This document shows positions 686 through 64,000 of a DNA stretch of 64,000 nucleotides, in pieces. Under the pieces are notes generated by a model. The model was not told the origin of the DNA. It was given only the letters and a program-made list of their open reading frames with translations, and searched no databases. Origin of the DNA: Euglena gracilis (Eukaryota); contig CP154954.1 of the NCBI GenBank assembly GCA_039621445.1, forward strand, positions 25,928,954 to 25,992,953, written 5' to 3'. The stretch's first letter is position 1. Each line of letters starts with the position of its first letter. The position numbers were made by a program, and so were the translations under genes.

Positions 686-52339
<51,654 letters not shown>

Positions 52340-54175
52340 GTGTGGGGGCCGGGGAGCGCAGCGGGGAGGGACGCAGGATGGGGGACGGAGAGCAAATGCA
52401 GAGGCACTTGTGTGAGACGGTGCTCAATAAGCCTCCACAGAAAGCGCCACATTTTTTGACAATCCACAAGGCACACGACAAAAAGCAACAGGTTGCAACC
52501 AAGAATACAATTTATTGAGATCTTTTTCTTCTCCTCATTTAGTATTTATGTTGTCGATCCCATCCCAAAACGCATCAAAGGAATAGTTGCCGCACCCCTT
52601 TCTGCTCTTTTCTGGCACCGAACTCTGCAATGCATTTGGTGTGATTTTGTTGTGGAATTTCTTTTATTTCGCAACGATTTGGAAAGGGTGGCATTTCACC
52701 AGAACCCCTCGCAGCATTTACATAACCTTGCACCCCCATTTACAACCCCTCCATTCAACCCATTTGTGACCCCCCACCCTGGGACCAACAATCAAACTTA
52801 GGCGGCGCGAATTGCCCAAATTTTATGCCATTTTTTAGGCGGTCCAAGTGTGCGGGTTTCCGTGTAGGCCACCCCACCGAAACTCAACTGATATTTCTGA
52901 TAGTTAATACAACCCAGGAATTGTATGCGGGTTTCCGCCTGTTTCCACTGTCTTGACACGTGACCCATTTTGGAAATTAATGGTGAAAAAGGGGTGGTTC
53001 TGTGAAATACCCCCCAGAAACCTGGCCGAAAATGTGAAAATGGAGAAGGGGTGGGAGAACACCTGGCCATTGGAGTCCCGGCCGTGTCACGACGGAGCCG
53101 GACCCCACCTCCGGGAGGGGGGTGACATGGGGGAACCTGTGAGGGAGAGGCACCCGCGTAAGCAACCCGTGCACTTTTTGAGGACTGGTGAGTGCCGACG
53201 AGCAGTGACGGGAGGGGGAAACGAATACCACTGCGGAACTGATTCTGTAATTTTTGACAGATGAGGTGTTGAGCGGGAAACCGCGCAGAACAGTTGAACG
53301 ATCTGAAAGAGACTAACACTTCAAGAGGGCGCTGAATGACCAAGGCAGGGTAAAAGTGAACTTGTGCGGTTATCCGTGCAAAAACACACTGGGAAACCCC
53401 TGGGGACGTTGGACTGTAAACTGGACGTGACATCCAATGGGGCACCTGACCCAAGGCAGCCCTCTTCCCATGCCCCCTCCCCCTCACCGCCCGCCTGCCA
53501 GAGACTGCGATAGCACACGAAGCGCAACGACAGAAAGAAGGGTGGGAGGGGGAGGGTGTGTGTGTGCGGATCACCGTGCAGGGTCCTGGAGGGGGCCTTG
53601 GTCCTGGGGGGAAGAGAGCGAGCCGAAGTCTCTGTGGGCGGTCCAGAGGGGAAGAGAGAGAGACACACGGAGGGGACGAACGGACAGCCGAATGGGTGGT
53701 CCAGGTCCAGGCATACGAGATGTGGTCTCAGAGAGGGGTGTGCGTCAGAGAGGCATCTCACACTCCATACACTGCACTCGCAAAAGGGTTGGTTGGGCGC
53801 ATTGAATGGGAGACCAGGAATGTGTGCCCTGGACCTCACACAGCGGTTTGGGGCGTCCGGTGGGTCCCAGGTGGAAAAAGGGTACGATGGAGTGGTCCAG
53901 GGGTTGGGTTCCTGTCGAAAGGTGAAAGGCGTTTGGGCAGTCCCGGGGGCAGTGGGTGTGCGGTGAGGGTGTGTGATACACGAAAAAACCAAAGCAGCGG
54001 GCGGTCCCAGGTTCAAAAGTATCGGGCGGTCCATACAGGAGGGGCAGAGGGAGCTGCTCCGACGGCTGCCCACGGCCGTCCACGGCCGTGCACTCGGTGG
54101 GGATGGCGGCTGCCTGCCGCCCCGCCGCGCCCGGCCCGCCCGCCCGGCCCGCCCGGCCCGCGCTGCTGCTCACAC

Positions 54176-57100
54176 GTTGAGCAGCTCCTCCAGCGCGCCG
54201 GCCGGCGTGGGCTTCTTCTTCAGCTGACCCTCCCCCCTTGGACTTGATGGATTGGAGGAGGGAGGAGGGGTGTACGCGTGCAGTGAATGAGTCAGCAAGC
54301 CGTGCGCGGTTTCCTGTGAACATCACTGACGAACATAGGGTCCTAGATCCGTCCAGAGTTTGTAAGGACACAGGCACTGTGCATGCAAAACCTCCTGAAC
54401 CCAAAAAGAGCATAGGAGATTGTGTGCGGGTTTCCGTGCAGCGCAGAAGAAGACGCACGTGTGCGGTTTCCCGCGTGCCAAGCCGTGGCTGCAAAACCCA
54501 GGGGCTGAAGGAGCACATTGATAGGACGCACTGAAGGTGCACATTGATAGGACACACGCTGAAGGGGGGACCGTGTTGGGGGCGGTCGCGGCACGATCTC
54601 CTCAATCTCGTCCTCCGGTTCACCGGCGGCGGCCTCGGTGCGCGGCGGGGGTGCGGGCCGGGCGCTGGCGGCCCGTCACCGGGGTCTCCGGCGCCGGCTG
54701 CTCCTGCGCCGCTGCTGGCGGTGCGGCCGCGCCTTTCCGCAGCCCGGAGGGGGTGGAGGCCCCCTTGCGGCCCGCCGCCGCGCCGCCGCCGCTGGCCGAC
54801 GGCTTCTTGGCCGGCGTTACCGGGGCTTCACTCTCCTTCGCGGCAGGCTCCCTCTCATTCCACTCCTTCCCCTTGGCGGCCGGGGGGGGCCTTCTCCTTC
54901 TCCTTCTCCTTCCCCTTGGCGGGGGTCTCCTTCTTGCCCCGCCCCTTGGCTGGCGGCGGGGGCGAGGGCTCCCGGCCCTCCTTCTCCGGCTCCTTCCTCT
55001 TCGGCCGGGGGGGCATGTCCTCCTCTTCCTTCTCCCCCTTCTCCTCCTCCTCCTCCAGCCCGCCCCGGCCGGAGACGTCCAGGGGCTCATGGTGGGTGAT
55101 GCGGTGGTGGACGTTGATGGCCACAGGGGCCACCACCCGGGTGGGGTGGGTCATAGCAACAGGCATAGCAACAGCCAGTCATAGAAACAGCCAAGCACAC
55201 CGCTCCACGGGAATCCGCACGCGTGCACTGTCCGCGGGAAACCGCGTGCACGCTGTGCATCACGTTCCGATGCTGTACTAACGGCTCATGCATGCAGAGT
55301 CGATACGGGCAAACGTTCCCCCCCCCCCTCGTCTGGCCTGCACTGAGGTGGCGCCCTGATCCCACAGGATGGCCGGCTTCCCGTCGGCCACTTTGATCTC
55401 GCGCTGCAGCTGGTCCACCCGCAGCTGCATCGCCTCGTCCGCCTCCTCCAGGAGGTCGGGGTCCCCCCAGATGACGCCGATGGGGACCTGCAGCCGGGTG
55501 GCGAGGTCCGCCGGGAGGGCGGCGTGGCGGGTGACCGCCAGCACCCAGTTGTGGGCCTCCACGTGCAGCCGCGCCAGCAGCCACCACGCCACCTCCACCG
55601 GCAGGGTGGGCGGCCCCTCCCCCGCAGAGCTGTGTCTCACTTTCAGGCGGGAGGGATGAGGAGTGCGGGTCGAAAAGGGAATTGGCCAAAAGGAATTCAC
55701 CCTGTGGAACTGAACGTCGTTCTTTCAGCAGAGGAAAGGGAAAGCACCACGAGAAGTGCACGGAAAACCGTTTAAATTGTAAAATTGTACCTGGACTGAC
55801 AATCATTTTGATGAACAGAATTGTACCAATACCTATAAACTGACCAAGGATGTTGACTGTGACGTTTCTTTTGTTTTTTAGGTATGAACAAAACACTGAC
55901 CCTGTCCTACTAGGGTGATCTGATGTGGCACGTGCGGGGGACGATGAAGGTGTGTGTAGACGGAACGGCAGTGGAACATTGATCTTCTGAGTCACAGCAT
56001 GGATCTTAAGAAACATTCGTGTGCACGGAGAGTATCCCGTGTGCGCAGGTGTGTGTATCAGTCCTGTGCGGATTCCCGTGCACTCCACAAAGTTGTGCGG
56101 ATTCCCGTGTCCCCCCAAAAAAGAGAACGTTCTGTTGGTTTAAAAAAAAAGAAAAAACGAAACGAAGGGTGTGCACACCCGAAAGTCCGTCTTGCTGCTG
56201 AAGAGGGCGGTGACGGTGGTGATGTTGAAGAGGTAGGTGCGGTCCACGTTGGACTTCACCGGCCGGTGCAGGGTGACGTCCACACGACGCATCTCGTCGG
56301 GGACGTCCATGCCCTTCTGCAGCGTCTGCTGCAGGGCCCCGATGGCGAACGCCCGCCCCGTGGCCACGAACGGGACCCCGCGGCTCCACAGTCTCAGGAG
56401 CTCAGGGTGGACGTCGGCGTCGCTCAGCCCGTCCGGGACCTCCACCACCACCGCGTCGACGTTCAGCTCCATGATCTCCCGCGGCATCCCCGCGGTGGGG
56501 TGGAGGGGGACCACGTGCGCCAGGCGGGACGGCTCGGGACTCTCCCCACGCTCCGCCGCTTCCGCCCTTCTTCGCCCCCGGGTGGACCGGCTGCCCGCCC
56601 GCGGAGAGCCAGCCTCAAACAGCTCCCCCTCCCCAGACGTGGGCTGACTGGGGGACCCCTCCGCCTCCTCCCGGCTGCTGCCGGCCGCCGCTGTGGCCGC
56701 CCCGCGCGCCGACCGCCCCGCCACCCCCCACCCCGCTGAGGTCCGGGTGCAGAAGCGGCCCCCGTACCGCACCGTGGGCTCGGCGAGCGGCTGGGCCAGC
56801 CGCGCCCGCAGGGGAGCGTAGCGCTCAGTCCCCCACAGGGGGGAGCGGAGGACCGCCTCCCGCGGTGGCCGGCCTCAGGACCACCCCGAACCTCAGACAT
56901 CACAGGGAGAATCCTGAGCCAGGACACACAAAAAACGAAACAGCTGCACTCCGTGACATTCTAATGTGACTTGTGATATTTCAGGCGGGTTCCCGTGTAA
57001 AAACAACCATGTGCTACTAACCAAAGGTAAAGGGAAAAAGTGCACACACACACGTCCTGGATAGTCCTGCGCACGGGTGCTGGGCCGACCAGCGCCAGTT

Positions 57101-59194
57101 GGTACCGGTGAGCGGCACCTTGATGTCCGCGCTGTCCATGCTCTGCTCCAGGCTGGGCACCATGGCCAGGGTACCTGAGCACGAGAACGGTGACGTCAGC
57201 AAAGAATCCCATCACTACGCACGCTTCCATGTACAAGCGTCTTTCCACGGAAACCCGCCTGAGAATCACAACCTTAAAAAGAAAACGTGTGGCCACAGAG
57301 TGCGGAAGACAGCGCAGAGTAGACATACGGCGGGTCGGGTGGACGTGGTGAAGGTCCGGGTGCATCAGCAGCCACGTCCACGTGCGGCGGCGGATCAGCG
57401 TCCCCACCACCGCCTTGACGGCGGAGTGCCATTCCTCCCCCGGCACAGTCCACCCCAGCGCGCATTGTGTGGTGTGCGGTTTACCGCGTACTGTCTCTGT
57501 ATCCACTCGAACAGTAAAACTGGTTCAACTGTCCCCCGTATGATCACAGTTTCCTTGTGGGCGTGCGCCTGTGTGTGTCTGTCTGTGTGAAAGTGCGGGC
57601 ACAGTCCCAACAGAGACAGACAGTGAAATGGACATCCGAACCAGCCGCACCGTCGTCGCCTTCGCCGCCTCGTCCAGCATCTCCCTCGTCAGGGCGACGT
57701 AGTCCTGCGGGTCGTACAGCTGCTCGATCGCCTTGAACGCGTACGGGGACAGCGCCGCCGCCACCCCCGTCGTGGGGCGCGCCTCCAGCGCCCGCACCGC
57801 CTCCACCACCGGCCGCCCGCTGTGCAGCAGCCACTCCGCCAGCGGCTGCATCGACTTCACCCAGTTGTCCTGCACAGAGGAGGTCAGGGAGAGTTGAGGG
57901 GGGGGGGGCAACAGGGGGGGGGATTGAGTGATGTGTACGTGATAGCTGGAATATCAAAGGACAGGGTGCGCGCACTCACTCTCCCTCTGAGGAGCAAAAA
58001 GAAAGGAAGCAGGCCATCTCGGCGGGAATCCGTGCATTGCATCAAATAGAGAACAGCGCACACGGAAATCCGCGCACACACCATCTTGCCGTGGGACGCC
58101 TCCGTGCACCCCGTCTTCACGTACACCCGCTTCAGCAGCTCCGTCCGGTTCACCGTCAGGCGGGCGGCGGTCCCCGCCTCGCCGTCCGGCACCGCCCCCG
58201 GCCGCTCCCGCTCCACCTCCCGCTCCAGCCACTCCACCCGCTGGCTGAGGGACATCTCCCTCACCGTCCCGTCCCGGGCTTGCATGCTCCCCGCCACGCG
58301 CTGCCTCTCCTCGAGGCTGGCCGACCCCAGCACCGTGTGGCAGTTGAACCACTCGGTCCACTGCGGCGCCGGCCGCGCGTCGGCCACCGCCGCGTCCGCC
58401 ACCTGGGTGGCCGCCAGGAAGCGGTGCTGCCCGCTCAGGATGACGAACTTCCCCGTCGCTGTGACAACAGGGAGGTCAACAGTGCCACTGAGTGTTGTTC
58501 AGGTGCACGGATTCCCGCCTGGATCACCACCCCAAATCAAAAAAAAACCAGTACAAACGGTGTACATTTCATTATTCCGTCATTTGGGAAGCATCCGCCG
58601 CCATTTACAACATCCATGAATACAGACAGGCTGGCCTACTATGCTGATAGAAACAAAACACACCCTGCTCCGGCCACACCACGAAGCTCAAGGCCCCCAC
58701 CGGCGGGTTCTCCGTGAACGCCTTGACGAGGCTGTCCACGTGGGCCTTTTCGACCCGCCGCACCTGCCCTCGCGTGAGGGTCTCGTCCAGCACCAACACG
58801 TCAAGGCGCGGAGGCTGTCTGGCTCTCCAGGGTTTCAGCTGAAAGTTCTGAACGGACAACTGCACAGGATGTCTGATGCACGCGCACGCCAAACACAAAT
58901 CTGAGCGGTTTGCACGGAAACCCGCACAGCTGTAGAAACCAAAGGACGTCAATGACACTGAAACAAACTGGGTGAGTGTCATCCAAAAAATGGAGTGACT
59001 TCTCCCGTACTTTCCAAAACATCCCAGGAATGAGGAACCGTCAAACACCCTCGGACGATTGTACGACAAAAAAAAAGGAGAGAACCACACAAGCCAGCTC
59101 CAGACCCCCTCCGGACACGGGCCAGCGGGGTCGGGGTCTTCGACACCAGCTCCGTCGCCGAGCGAGTGGGCGCCGTGGGCTTCCGGGCTGCCAT
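54176..59194 (-). CDS. ParB/Srx-domain protein with possible degenerate amino-methyltransferase region and low-complexity K/E/P tail
   Basis: Exons 59194-59106, 58872-58664, 58458-58082, 57869-57642, ~57460-57329, 57174-57073, 56870-56179, 55986-55901, 55629-~55344, ~55119-~54570, ~54250-54176; most junctions are phase-consistent GT-AG. ParB signature GQVRRVEKAHVDSLVKAF..VVW..GKFVILSGQHRFLAA. The 3' exons are uncertain. Confidence 0.65.
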
Positions 59195-59200
59195 CAGAGG

Positions 59201-59212
59201 TCTAAAAAAACG
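59201..59212 (-). promoter_or_regulatory. splice (possibly spliced-leader trans-splice) acceptor just upstream of the ParB-gene ATG
   Basis: Minus strand reads TTTTTTTAG|ACCTCTGATG. Confidence 0.4.
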
Positions 59213-59431
59213 AGGCAGCGTGAAAACAGCAGAAATAAAGGAAATTCAGGTCAGAAACAGTCCCCACGCAAACACTTTTGTGAATATAAATAAGCAGAAA
59301 ATATGGGATAGTCAGTTCAATCAAAAAAATAATTGTCATTAAACGAAACACAGCAGTGACCACTCCGCAGAGCACCCCCCTTTTGGCTGGGTGGAGAATG
59401 CTTTTGCACGGAAACCCGCCCGCCACCCCCG

Positions 59432-62400
59432 TCATATTCTGAAACAAACCCTCACCCTCGCTCTGAAGGCCTCCAGCTGACTCCCTGATATACAGAGAGG
59501 TTCAGGACCACATACAAAGACCGGGGTCCGGTAGGGACACACCGCCGCTGGGGACAGACTGAGGTCCTCATCCGAGGAGGAGGACCCAGACGACGTCGGG
59601 CGGCTGCTCAGCAGCTCCCCCAGACTGCCGAGGCCATCTGAGGCCGCCGGGGAGACGTACCCCTCGGACAGCGTGCCCGGCGGCTCGTACAGCGACTCCG
59701 CTGTACTGGGCGGCTCGTACAGGCTCTCCGCCTCGGGCAGCTCCAGCGCCGGCCATCCCGGTTGAACCGCAGGCGGCTGCACCACCGCCGCCACGGCCGC
59801 GGAGGAACTGGGCTCCTCCGGGGTGAACCGGACGCGGCCCTCCGCCGGGGACTCCTCGGCAGGCCTCATCACCTCCGGCGGCGCAGGTTCCGCTCCTGCA
59901 CGGGTTTCCGCACGGGCCACCGCCTCTGCGCGGGTTTCCGCTTGCCCGCTGGTCGCCAGTTCGACGTCCCCCGGGGGCGTGGGGCTGCGGCGCCGCCGCT
60001 GCCGCTGGTGGAGGAAGTTGTCCATCGCCCGCTGGCGACGGGCGAACTCCTGGGGGTCCACCGGCCCGACGTTCTCCCGCATCCAGACCAGGATGTCGGG
60101 GGTCAGGGCCCGGCCGCTCACCAGGGTCAGGAGGGAGGTCCGCATCAGGGCCTCCAGCGCCCGGACGTCCACGATCTCCGGCAGGATGGGCGGGGACCCC
60201 CACCGGGGGAACTCCACCTCGGCGGCGTCCACCCAGGCGACCCGCGTGGCGTCCACCCGGCGGGGGAAGGGGCGGCCCTCGGGGTGGTCCGCCAGCTGGC
60301 GCACCCGGCGGGTCATCTCGGCGACCAGCCCCAGCCGCAGGGAACCCCGGCTGGCGTGCGGCGCCCCCGACGGCGGCGGCAGGCCGAGGAACAGCTGCAG
60401 GGTGCCCCGGAAGTCCGTGACGTACGGCGACCGACGGCAGGCACCCGACAGGCGCGACAGCATCGCCTCGCCGGCCTCCTCCACGAAGACGCACCCGGGC
60501 AGGCGGGACATCCACGGCTGCCAGGTCAGCAGGGCCAGGGAGATGGTCCGCATGTACTCCGAGGGGAGGCCATGCGGACTCATGGCCCGCTCGAGGTGGG
60601 CCTGCAGGACCAGGCAGCGCTCCAGCACCTGCCGCGCCGTCTCCCCCTTCACCTCGTCGTCGGGGCGGCCGCGCCAGGTGCACTGCCGCACCTTGAAGCC
60701 GAGGTGGAGGAGCGCCGGCAGGAAGAAGGTGAGGAGGCGGTGCAGCCCCAGGAGCAGCTGCGGACCGTACGCGTCAGCCGCAGTGGGGGCGGAGACGTGC
60801 ACGCGCTGGCTCTCCTCCCGGAGACGATCCTCCAGGTGGCGTCAGAGTGACAGATGGGCTCTCGAAGTGTCTTCACCCACCAGAGGAACAGAGAGGCTGA
60901 CAAGCTGGCCTACGTAACCTATCACCAGGGTCCTTTACGCGGGTTTCCGCACAAAGCGGACAGACTGTGACGGACAGATGGGAGAGATGTGACACCGACT
61001 AACATACGACATGACTGTGCGGATAACCGCATAAACATTGGCCTGATGTACCAGGTGCAGCCTGAAAGCAGCCAGCTTGGGCAGTGGTCACCCTGGCTGG
61101 GGCAGCACGTCGGCCCGGGTCAACAGGAGGCTGGCGAACAGCTTCTCCATGTACAGCACCTTCCGGTGCGACCGCAGGGACGTCGTCAGCTGCCGGCTGC
61201 CCCCGGCGCCAACCGGCACCTCCAGGTGGGCCAGCACCGGGAAGAACGCCCGGTACACCACCGTCACCGTGTGCTTGTAGGCATGCCAGATGCCGTACAG
61301 CAGGGGGACGTTGGCGAGGTGCTCCCCCATCCGGAAGCGCAGCGCCGGGGCCGAGTAGAGGAGGCGGAGGATGCGGTAGTGGATGTTCTCATCCACCAGG
61401 AGGGGCAGCTGGCGGCCCGACCGCGCCTGCAGCTGCAGCACGGTCTCCAGGAGCTGGAGGAGGTCCCGGTTCGAGCTCACCGTCTGCTCGGTCAGGGAGA
61501 AGGGCCTCCACCGCAGCGACCGCATCGCGTCCCGCTGCATGTCCAGCGGGACGCGGACGTTGTCCACCGAGAGCTCCGCCCGGTGGAGGCCGCGGACCGC
61601 CTGGTGCAGCTTCTTCGCCGACTGCAGGCACAGGTCGGCCGCCCAGCGGAGGTGCTGCACCACCGTCCCGAACTCCGGGTGGCCCGTGGACACGGGGAAC
61701 GTCACGGACCGCGTCAAAGTCCCCTGACGAGTCCGCAGGGGGTCGATCTGCAGCAGTCACCACACAGAGGGCCTGCTCACTGAGCCAACCAGGTACGTGT
61801 ACGCATACACAACCCTGAAGTGTGCGGGTTTCCGTACAAACCAACACTGATTACACGGAAACCCGCACAAACGCGTCTGACAACCACCTTTGTACTTAAC
61901 CCTGTACACACCTTGGGGGATGTTGAGCTTTGTTTTCACCAGTGTCACCGTTCACCTGTCCCTTGTCACCAACTGTGTCACCCCGACTTGTGGGGTTCTT
62001 GAGCAGTTCATTCATTCAGTGCATTTTAGACAGACCATTCCCAGGCGGAAAACCGCGCACGTCTTGTCATGCACGGATGGTCATCGTCAGGCCCACTTCG
62101 CCAACAGCAGAAGGCAGAGTAGGCACCCTGAACCCAGGGCGGTGACGTTGCGGCTGTAGCTGGGCTGGGTGGGGTCCGTGCCCCACCGCAGCCAGCAGAA
62201 GTTGTCCAGCCACAGCACGCACTGGTGGCCGTCCAACGCCCGCAGCACCGCGTCCCGGGCCCTTCGCGCCCGCTCCCGCACCAGCTCCTCCGTGGGGCCC
62301 ACCAGACCGGCGGGCCGCAGCAGTCGACGGGTAGCGCGTGGCAGGTCCTGCAGCGTCTGCTGCGCCGGGGCGGGGGCCAGGGCGGCCGCCGGCGTGACCA

Positions 62401-62710
62401 GCTCGCCGAAGGGCACGGCCAGCCGTCGCAGCGTCCGCCACAGCGCCAGCAGCCCGTCGGTGAAGCGGGCCATCCACATCGGCCGCTCGGACGGGGGCCG
62501 GGTGTACTCCCGCCGCACCTCCCGCAGGCTGCGACGGGACCGGCGGTTGGCCCTGACGGCCAGGCCTGTCTCCACCAGGTTGAGGGCTCCCAGGTGGCCT
62601 CTTCGGAGGGCGTCGTCCAGGATCGCCCAACCATCCGCCGGGGGGGCGCCGGCAAGGTACCCCCGCAGCTGGTCCAGCTGCAACACCAGCGTCTCAGACG
62701 AGGCGGCCAT
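59432..62710 (-). CDS. putative DDE transposase, Academ/DUF6589-like (~880 aa; exons 62710-62134, 61758-61099, 60837-59432)
   Basis: The three exons join in frame (577+660+1406 nt) through two non-conventional introns. Motifs in order: VLWLDNF, LLVDENIHY, LLYGIWHAYK, FVEEAGEAMLS. The family assignment is by motif recall. Confidence 0.65.
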
Positions 62711-63719
62711 TTTTTTTTTTGCACAGTCTGAGACAACGGAGAAGAGAGTGTGCGGATTACCGCGCAGCAGAGGGTGCGTGAGTGAGTCAGGGACACAATG
62801 TAGACACATCTGCTGTACATGCTGAACATTGTTTTCAGTGAATGGACAAAGATCACTCACGTATGTACAGTTTCAACCGTGTTGTCACCCGCGTGTGGGC
62901 AGTGAAGCAGTGTCGTATCGTCGTGCCGACAAGGGCTCAGTCCTTTACACGGGAATCCGCACAACACTGCGCTGTGTTTGATTCAAATCTGTCATCGTAG
63001 CACACTGTGTTGTACCACACACCGCAGCCATTGTAGACCGCTTCTACGCGGGTTTCCGCACAACTGGTGGGAACATCGCAATGACCTGTTCTTCCTTCGC
63101 TATTACCTCCCTCACCGTTGAAATGTTTGCGCTTGATTCTGTGCTGTTGTGCGGGTTCCCGTGTAAAGCCATGGAAGGCTGCTGTTCAGGGTTTCTCAAA
63201 TTTGAAGCCGGCGGGGGCAACAGTACCCGGATCGGTCCGTACGGCGCAATTCAGAGCGCGATTCCAGGTAAGACGGCCCTCCAAAACCGAAGGACCTGGG
63301 ACCTTGTCGCGATTCAGGGTGTTTAGTGGTACAAGCGGATGTTGAAATTCTCGCGATTTGTACCCCCTCGCGAACGGGAGGTGCCACACTGCGACGTAAC
63401 CCCTGGGAAAACACCGTGGTCTGGGGGCCGAAGTCGTTGTTTGTGCGGTTTCCCGCACAAACCGCAGCTCCACGTCGTAGAAGGTGGCCTGTTTTGGGTG
63501 ATGTCAAGGGAGCAGCAGTTCACCCTACGGATGTGTCTCGCGAACGACACAGGAACCGTAAACCAGTCGTGTACCACCAACCACCCTCAGTCGCGAAAGA
63601 GTCCCAGGTAGTCGTGTCCGGGGGAGGTCTACAGCACGCAATCGTGCGGCCCAGTTGGGCGTGTGCACTGAGTCCCCTCAGTGGCCTAGACCAACCCCCC
63701 CGGGGGTATACCGAACTGC

Positions 63720-64000
63720 TGTCAGCTTCCGCTTCGTTCAGCCTCCCTCCTCCGCACCAACCACAGAAGAGAAGAAAAGAGACCCTACACACACAAAAGA
63801 GACACACGTCGTGTATACATACACGCAGCCCGAGCGGATACCCGTACACGGACTCGTCCGTAAGGAAAAAGTAGGCAAGTGACCGCACCGGCCGGGGAAC
63901 CAGTGGCGTTGCCCACTGGGGTGGGCGGTCCCAGGGAGCTCGGCCACAAGAGGCCGTTACAGCCACTTGCCCAACATCTCTCTCCAGAGATCGCACATGG
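63720..64000 (-). CDS. 3' end of a further minus-strand gene, unknown product (partial)
   Basis: Open frame from the window edge ...PRPVRSLAYFFLTDESVYGYPLGLR, a candidate short GT-AG intron at 63822-63785, then GLFSSLLWLVRRREAERSGS*. Confidence 0.35.

Follow-up and report, generated by a model that had tools for sequence, protein, structure and literature searches.

A probable large, many-copy DNA transposon with a predicted DDE-fold transposase and dispersed near-palindromes in Euglena gracilis

What occupies the last 11 kb of a 64,000-nucleotide (nt) stretch of Euglena gracilis DNA (GenBank assembly GCA_039621445.1, contig CP154954.1, positions 25,928,954 to 25,992,953 of the forward strand; hereafter the window), where recognisable exons of a plus-strand host gene end and a series of minus-strand coding blocks follows? 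The window is GC-rich eukaryotic DNA, and a reading made from its letters alone (the sequence-only reading) had proposed a transposon lying antisense within a host intron and carrying an Academ-like transposase and a ParB-domain cargo gene. The computational follow-up described here indicates that positions 52797–64000 quite probably belong to an autonomous DNA transposon of the cut-and-paste kind, as the left (3′) portion of a large many-copy element (>11.2 kb), which would have inserted in antisense orientation a short way downstream of an exon of a host gene of sacsin/NO VEIN type. Gene A of the element would encode a DDE transposase of ~780–880 amino acids (aa), with a core resembling RNase H and an insertion domain made up wholly of helices, that cuts and rejoins the element ends. 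Gene B would encode an element-borne accessory protein, likewise in many copies, whose N-terminal part may be a ParB/Srx-like nucleotide- or DNA-binding region. Near-palindromes of ~18 nt spread through the element are most likely sites at which a protein of the element binds, with the helical N-terminal region of the transposase as the foremost candidate. The general kind is a known one, a cut-and-paste DNA transposon of P/hAT type at the level of the enzyme fold; membership in a named superfamily is unproven.

The repeated nature of the unit was established with Logan contigs of four sequencing runs (X1, X9, X14 and X15) placed on positions 50001–64000. In each of three DNA runs the contigs inside the unit are far deeper than those of the single-copy host flank: 1132–2002 against 38–75 in X1, 59.5–221 against 3.35–3.95 in X9 (five of the six contigs listed, the other being a diverged piece at 4.73), and 27.8–170 against 4.9 in X14. 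These values amount to ~6–60 times the flank; summed contig depth may include other sequences and does not equal copy number, so that the claim made here is limited to "many copies". The excess covers the full 11.2 kb, all 24 depth bins between 52803 and 64000 lying far above flank contig depth, and 14 DNA runs (from coded organisms A, B and C) contain 0.61–0.64 of the words sampled from 52301–62300. Five X14 contigs inside the unit (records 11, 12, 14, 15 and 16) differ from the window at only 0–3 positions at depths of 46–170, which argues that part of the family is young.

The left end of the unit is sharp. Record 6 of X1, a contig of 491 letters at the single-copy depth of 65, agrees with the window over 52621–52796 and then continues for 315 letters unlike it, as would fit an allele without the element. 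Four X9 contigs follow the window no further than 52836, an indication that the initial ~40 nt are common to subfamilies; the terminal 22-mer occurs once in the window. The sequence-only reading had set the boundary at 52799, within 3 nt of the contig-derived end, and its view of a mobile element antisense to the host gene agrees with the multi-copy depth and the sharp left end. It had also remarked that the host's miniature inverted-repeat transposable element (MITE) and microsatellite clutter is absent, and only 13 short tandem-repeat rows were indeed found in 52.8–64 kb, compared with long GT/TGGG arrays and MITE-like repeats upstream. On the minus strand, 54858–62710 consists of long coding blocks of 100–300 codons with a GC content at third codon positions (GC3) of 0.80–0.97, separated by gaps of ~100–500 nt. 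The description of more than 11 kb of compact minus-strand genes was thus correct as to these blocks and overstated as to their extent, the coding signal covering only ~8 kb (54.6/54.86–62.71 kb) flanked by non-coding stretches of ~2 kb and 1.3 kb; and of the "at least 3 genes" announced, two are modelled here, with the proviso that gene B might be two genes. Several X1 DNA contigs (and some from X9 or X14) bridge 58470/58658, 59211/59376, 59430/59533, 63736/63866 and 58131/58171, skipping 187, 164, 102, 129 and 39 nt, respectively, from which it follows that element copies differ by indels, mostly in non-coding DNA.

Gene A was assembled from three stop-free blocks (Table 1). A relative of 770 aa (P0001) aligns to the window in three pieces that together span its residues 3–752, so gene A is complete. 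A phmmer search with block 2 among 1.84 billion proteins found 507 representatives (clustered at 50% identity) at E≤0.001; 278 representatives of the family reach 1e-10 and 44 reach 1e-30 or better, with a best E of 4.7e-65 and full lengths of ~700–840 aa. Ten relatives were looked up; all are metagenome proteins without a name, encoded on contigs of 2.7–9 kb in ENA/JGI assemblies. The copy in the window keeps every one of the 21 invariant columns of a 25-sequence alignment: W162, D164 and N165 in block 1, 11 residues in block 2, and G446, R450, W502, E516, E517, E520 and A521 in block 3. Pfam gave no meaningful family for nine minus-strand open reading frames (ORFs), for ten family members or for all 84 aligned members, and of its transposase models, those of hAT, P, MULE, CMC/Plavaka/KDZ, piggyBac and PIF included, none matched any of the 84 at E≤1. 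The only PDB-sequence match of the 84-member profile, a capsid protein at E 0.022, was taken as chance, and an Atlas search with block 3 returned no usable match.

An AlphaFold model of P0001, built on the 84-sequence alignment, has a predicted local distance difference test (pLDDT) of 85.1 and a predicted template-modelling score of 0.80. The 11 top-ranked Foldseek rows are all Hermes or P element transposase chains, at weak E values of 0.0097–0.052. Alignment of model residues 133–557 with VIA-align gave Z 10.0 for the P element (286 residues aligned, root-mean-square deviation 5.2) and 9.5 for Hermes, followed by ISCth4 (8.0), Transib (7.2) and RAG1 (6.8). In an unbiased scan of 48,161 representative chains, ranks 1–34 were occupied entirely by transposases, RAG recombinases or integrases, with scores of 9.8 for the P element, 8.2 for Hermes and 7.8 for Tn5. 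In the model, D164 sits on strand 1, D309 follows strand 4, and E516, E517 and E520 lie on the helix that comes after the helical insertion domain; from these strand and helix positions, the catalytic triad would be the Asp of WLDN, the Asp of LLVDEN and a Glu of VEEAGEA. On the strength of the model, gene A encodes a DDE-fold transposase with its conserved residues intact, in keeping with the transposase of the sequence-only reading.

A second property of the unit is a near-palindrome of ~18 nt with core GCGGGTTTCCG. Allowing at most one mismatch, 16 of its 17 matches in the window fall in 52852–63161, where 2.35 were expected, and none of 100 shuffles reached 17; with up to two mismatches, 37 of 56 matches lie within the unit, which is the last 17.5% of the window. 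Given the exon model, at least one copy is found in each gap between coding blocks as well as in both flanks, and a third of the copies have a fully palindromic CCGCACA arm. Two copies (59900 and 59930) lie in the coding tail of gene A, where they are translated as a repeated AETRA peptide (59900–59945). The idea that the motif marks a nested MITE was rejected, as its conservation ends within ~20 nt. An RNA hairpin is not favoured, given that both orientations occur and that most single copies fold weakly. A literature search with the motif letters produced, among the matches listed, only unrelated papers, mostly on antimicrobial resistance. Just downstream of gene B, a 26-nt tandem duplication (54505–54557, 92% match) adjoins the motif pair at 54426 and 54463.

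Palindromes of this sort are also present around distant relatives of gene A. Five metagenome loci (L001–L005) encode proteins with 25–36% identity to the window block, and their palindromes of 16–20 nt occur both in the flanks and within the long ORF. L001 has five copies of GGTGTTTNTCAACACC (0.03 expected), L003 four copies of GTCCGCG-N6-CGCGGAC (0.01 expected) and L005 five copies of GTCCCGTNNACGGGAC (0.04 expected); the motif of L004 is the same as that of L005, and L002 has one copy with the core of L001. The L001 and L002 transposases are 47% identical and have the palindrome core in common, and pairs at 25–28% identity have different palindromes. Palindrome identity tracks transposase relatedness. 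A tblastn search of the five loci with 45 ORF pieces of 52.8–59.3 kb detected no gene B in their flanks of ~1 kb, no match falling below E 0.1. Since relatives without a sign of gene B have palindromes of their own, the transposase itself is the likeliest binder. The simplest reading of the palindromes is that they are binding sites co-evolving with an element protein, most likely the transposase.

Gene B lies downstream of gene A and was modelled from GC3 segments, splice-site reading and multi-copy depth. Its junctions between blocks 2 and 3 (58664|58458) and between blocks 3 and 4 (58082|57869) are canonical GT-AG and in frame. The N-terminal part reads …LDVLVLD…VDSLVKAF…FVVWPEQ / …GKFVILSGQHRFLAA…, a pattern, SGQHRF included, which we take to resemble ParB/Srx boxes. 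The sequence-only reading had gone further and named a ParB-domain cargo gene, for which no profile match reached significance: ParB_N (PF02195) was found neither by Pfam at E≤1 nor by NCBIfam or PADLOC at E≤10. Apart from SGQHRF, the leads consist of a weak match of residues 13–54 to PHROG 723, a "ParB-like partition protein" (E 0.3), and an Atlas cluster at rank 9 (score 0.92) in which 19% of the members have ParB_N. Exons 2 and 3 had no match among PDB sequences, tblastn against phages and plasmids gave none at E≤10, and three word-index searches found no homologues. These negatives are not strong, because the candidate domain is split by an intron and was tested exon by exon. A single-sequence structure model of exon 3 reached a pLDDT of 41.3, and the C-terminal blocks had no Pfam, NCBIfam or PHROG match to a 2-oxoglutarate (2OG) oxygenase. 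The sequence-only reading also knew of no ParB partner in Academ-type elements; a ParB-like accessory protein, PAG3, has since been reported from giant transposons of red algae (10.1101/2025.02.11.637652). In that preprint, on Bostrychia, PAG3 is reported to combine a ParB-like part with a 2OG oxygenase, on domain evidence that is likewise weak (HHpred E 0.29), and to occur in giant elements of the Plavaka, Mutator and Zisupton groups; inverted-repeat arrays are proposed as its targets (10.1101/2025.02.11.637652). A ParB-like accessory gene in a giant algal transposon is thus not unprecedented.

Table 1. Coordinates of the unit, its genes and motif, and the nearest host exon (positions in the window).
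Feature	Position	Strand	Description and basis
Repeated mobile unit	52797-64000	-	Contig depth and departure of the flank contig; left end ~52797; continues past the window end
Terminal stretch, candidate terminal repeat arm	52797-52836	.	Contains TAGGCGGCGCGAATTGCCC; flank match ends at 52796, X9 contigs diverge after 52836
Gene A block 1	62135-62710	-	ATG 62710-62708; WLDN (putative first catalytic Asp); tblastn, P0001 residues 3-186; GC3 0.91
Gene A block 2	61091-61756	-	RVPLD, PLLVDEN (putative second Asp), GIWHAYKH; phmmer; GC3 0.97
Gene A block 3	59435-60829	-	FVEEAGEAM (putative catalytic Glu), low-complexity tail; stop 59432-59434; tblastn, P0001 residues 422-752
Near-palindrome, 27 strict copies	52852-63461	16 on +, 11 on -	TGTGCGG(G/A/T)TT(T/C)CCG(T/C)(G/A)(C/T)A
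Gene B	54855-59194	-	About nine coding blocks, maybe two genes
Gene B blocks 1-5	59194-~59090 (ATG), 58847-58664, 58458-58082, 57869-57651, ~57479-57312	-	
Gene B blocks 6-9	~57205-57056, ~56868-56155, 55658-55332, 55160-54855	-	
Candidate ParB/Srx-like region of gene B	58082-58850	-	PHROG 723 and Atlas lead; no match in other libraries
Last recognisable host exon	52190-52339	+	Sequence, GC3 segment 52115-52366; 457 nt upstream of the insertion point

The host gene was followed on the plus strand as short blocks with a coding-like GC3 signal up to 52366. The segment 52115–52366 is the final plus-strand block with such a signal of its own, and the plus-strand segments listed beyond 54.7 kb overlap minus-strand exons. 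The last exon is preceded by cag| and followed by |gtgtgg and has no in-frame stop. Both sequence-only statements on this point, that the exon ends in a GT donor without a stop and that no further plus-strand exon is recognisable, are therefore borne out. Its NO VEIN-type host gene also finds a counterpart in ORF 20490–20873, a host exon that matches SACS (PF25794) at E 0.0013, short of the curated cut-off, as the sole match among 10 ORFs tested; Pfam returned no match for 10 long plus-strand ORFs upstream. ELVQNGDD in ORF 19847–20176 is presumably a GHKL motif. At least some of the plus-strand blocks are thus parts of a gene of sacsin/NO VEIN type. Since its last recognisable exon ends in a donor and lacks a stop, it is plausible that the unit sits within a host intron, the right flank of which would lie past the window.

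A few features of the left flank were recorded on the way. MITE-like repeats at 50468–51868, upstream of the last host exon, reach a summed X1 contig depth of 0.5–4.4 million, compared with ~40–75 for single-copy DNA, and this zone has many internal deletion joints and contains the direct repeats D16 and D18. Over 52328–52650 there are two X1 contigs, one identical to the window (depth 38.1) and the other with 20 differences and 5 gaps (depth 64.7), which suggests two haplotypes or a duplicated flank. Runs of a ~10-nt unit resembling (C)CATTTTGGCC occur in host non-coding DNA at 11242–11527 and 50000–50104 (family D7). Rfam and tRNA scans of the window found nothing.

Several observations weigh against reading the unit as an autonomous transposon. 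Neither of the two gaps in gene A (62135/61756 and 61091/60829) has an in-frame GT-AG closure that preserves the conserved residues (…NVTAL / LLQID…). For the first gap, 2530 in-frame joins were scored against a hidden Markov model of the family, and the best overall (438.1 bits), the best GC-AG (430.2) and the best GT-AG (423.3) differ too little to fix the junction; the donors CAGG|GTGCC and CAGG|GTGACC look canonical and are out of phase with AG acceptors. A defective copy, unconventional splicing or assembly indels may be responsible. In the final block of gene B, a stop at 54855 stands beside a C-run (54881–54890, minus strand) and a shifted frame of high GC3 is open to 54620, for which an assembly error or a frameshift of this copy could account. 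(The shifted frame encodes a tail rich in Lys, Glu, Pro and Ala.) No inverted counterpart of the terminal sequence is present in the window, which is what one would expect of an element that continues beyond 64000. The empty site is a hint drawn from one contig and not proof, and at 5 positions of the flank this contig departs from the window as well, consistent with a second allele or with a paralogous or diverged locus. To these points may be added the composite nature of the depth measure, the run labelled RNA-like (X15), which also covers the non-genic flank and so gives no evidence of expression, and the relatives L001–L005, which are short DNA or RNA contigs without visible element ends. 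A leaf-litter metatranscriptome with a small share (X20, 0.06) was left out of account. As single-stranded DNA the main motif variant folds weakly in four of five single copies (z −0.7 to −2.1); strong folding is seen for the copy that is fully palindromic and for an inverted pair in the first gap of gene A (z −6.1 and −7.4). Taken at their worst, such irregularities would describe a unit that is not an active transposon, either a host gene cluster, dispersed or segmentally duplicated, whose transposase has been domesticated, or a decayed element family with a non-functional copy here. The lack of a terminal inverted repeat or target-site duplication (TSD) within the window, the junctions that GT-AG introns do not close, the possible gene B frameshift and the divergence of most X1 contigs, which are only 90–95% alike (54172 of 100558, the MITE zone dominating), would all suit this explanation. 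However, it has to contend with the depth step and flank departure at 52796, with near-identical X14 contigs at high depth, with invariant residues that are all intact, with a motif confined to the unit and with a family that is highly diverse in metagenomes, as is usual for mobile elements. We therefore regard it as unlikely.

Two other explanations were considered. Under one of them the transposon is as described and gene B is a ParB/Srx-like protein that recognises the near-palindromes as parS-like sites. By analogy with the idea put forward for PAG3, such a protein would coat or mark element DNA for anti-silencing, end pairing or copy protection. The features that speak for it are SGQHRF after a short hydrophobic strand with the LDVLVLD…VDSLV block upstream (which we read as ParB boxes), the PHROG 723 and Atlas leads, the confinement of ~27 dyad-like sites to the element, and the precedent of PAG3, reported beside inverted-repeat arrays in the preprint (10.1101/2025.02.11.637652). 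Set against these, gene B has no significant match in Pfam, NCBIfam, PADLOC, PDB sequences, phages or plasmids, two of its parts are without any homologues, its fold model is of low pLDDT and no 2OG oxygenase was detected. Moreover, palindromes also occur in relatives whose contigs of 2–4 kb contain a gene A-like ORF and give no indication of gene B, which points to the transposase as binder and lowers the odds of a parS/ParB system; we consider the latter rather unlikely. The other explanation makes the unit an integrated virus or another large island (a giant-virus fragment, or a Polinton/Maverick-like or Starship-like element) in which the DDE gene is only a passenger. Its size of >11 kb, the extra gene or genes, the odd repeated motif and the truncation by the window end would be in line with this, as would one Atlas lead to DUF3723 (score 0.91), a family that we take to be linked to fungal Starships; no paper in the literature search had DUF3723 together with ParB. 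Yet no relative of gene A or gene B was found in 2.9 million viral contigs, no large ORF contains a capsid, polymerase, integrase or packaging domain, and the codon bias (GC3 0.8–0.97) matches that of host-like coding blocks, which together make this explanation very improbable.

What is unusual about this transposon is the combination of an unannotated and very diverse transposase family with element-wide, lineage-specific palindromes. The family is abundant in environmental data, where its members carry no annotation and at present pass as hypothetical proteins. Should the dispersed palindromes be bound by a protein and be retained over 47% protein divergence, they would point to self-recognition over the whole element and not at its ends alone; this, taken with the account of PAG3 in red algae, would suggest that proteins binding the element's own DNA have been acquired repeatedly by large algal transposons. 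The boldest form of the proposal is that gene A represents an undescribed, superfamily-level lineage of eukaryotic DDE transposons (no Pfam model, ~500 clusters at 50% identity in public metagenomes) whose hallmark is element-wide, co-evolving palindromes of 16–20 nt, read in this element by a ParB/Srx-like protein. We hold this to be rather improbable as a whole; if true, it would describe a eukaryotic transposon with parS/ParB-style recognition of its own DNA. On the practical side, a unit of this size inside a large host gene would mislead gene prediction, and the odd junctions of gene A may be relevant to the way in which the host removes such inserts by splicing.

Comparison with known systems is most direct for the P element and Hermes (hAT), which, like gene A, combine an RNase H-like core with a large insertion of helices ahead of the Glu-bearing helix. 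The structural scores (Z 9.8–10.0 for the P element and 8.2–9.5 for Hermes, over ~275–296 aligned residues) go with a sequence identity of ~10%. Gene A differs from both by an extra segment of ~80 residues between strands 2 and 3, which includes the invariant RVPLD, and by a G-x-W-H-x-Y-K motif after the second Asp, and no Pfam P-element or hAT domain was found in the 84 members; a GTP-binding or BED/THAP domain was likewise not detected. With regard to the palindromes, CACTA elements (the TnpA sites of En/Spm) and Ac/Ds carry short subterminal motifs in both orientations that bind an element-encoded protein. These are concentrated in the few hundred bp next to the ends, whereas the motif described here is spread at ~2.4 per kb over the whole 11 kb, in every inter-block gap and at two coding sites.

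Academ elements resemble the unit in being large eukaryotic DDE elements with extra coding capacity and no Pfam model. According to one source, the cores of Academ, Kolobok, Novosib, Sola, Zator and Dada are all without a Pfam model (PMC5751038), so the missing Pfam match is compatible with Academ and with these other superfamilies; our literature search on Novosib elements gave nothing useful on algae. The Academ lineages described in another are AcademX, with an XPG-type nuclease, and AcademH, with a helicase, and their TSDs are of 9–10 or 3–4 bp (PMC10045372). In a comparison made by description only, the 11.2 kb seen here differ in that neither partner was detected in the minus-strand ORFs of the unit (Pfam at E≤1 for nine ORFs, NCBIfam at E≤10 for six blocks), the element continuing past the window. 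The giant Plavaka elements of red algae (EnSpm/CACTA-type, with PAG1–3) are reported to be likewise very large algal DDE elements with a proposed ParB-like protein and inverted repeats (10.1101/2025.02.11.637652). Compared by description only, they differ from the Euglena unit in that gene A has no Plavaka, KDZ or Transposase_21 match, gene B has no detected 2OG oxygenase, and neither PAG1 nor PAG2 (methylase/SET) was seen in the 11.2 kb. The arrangement of the repeats also differs: those of the giant Plavaka are reported to form an array beside one gene, whereas the palindromes described here are dispersed over the entire element.

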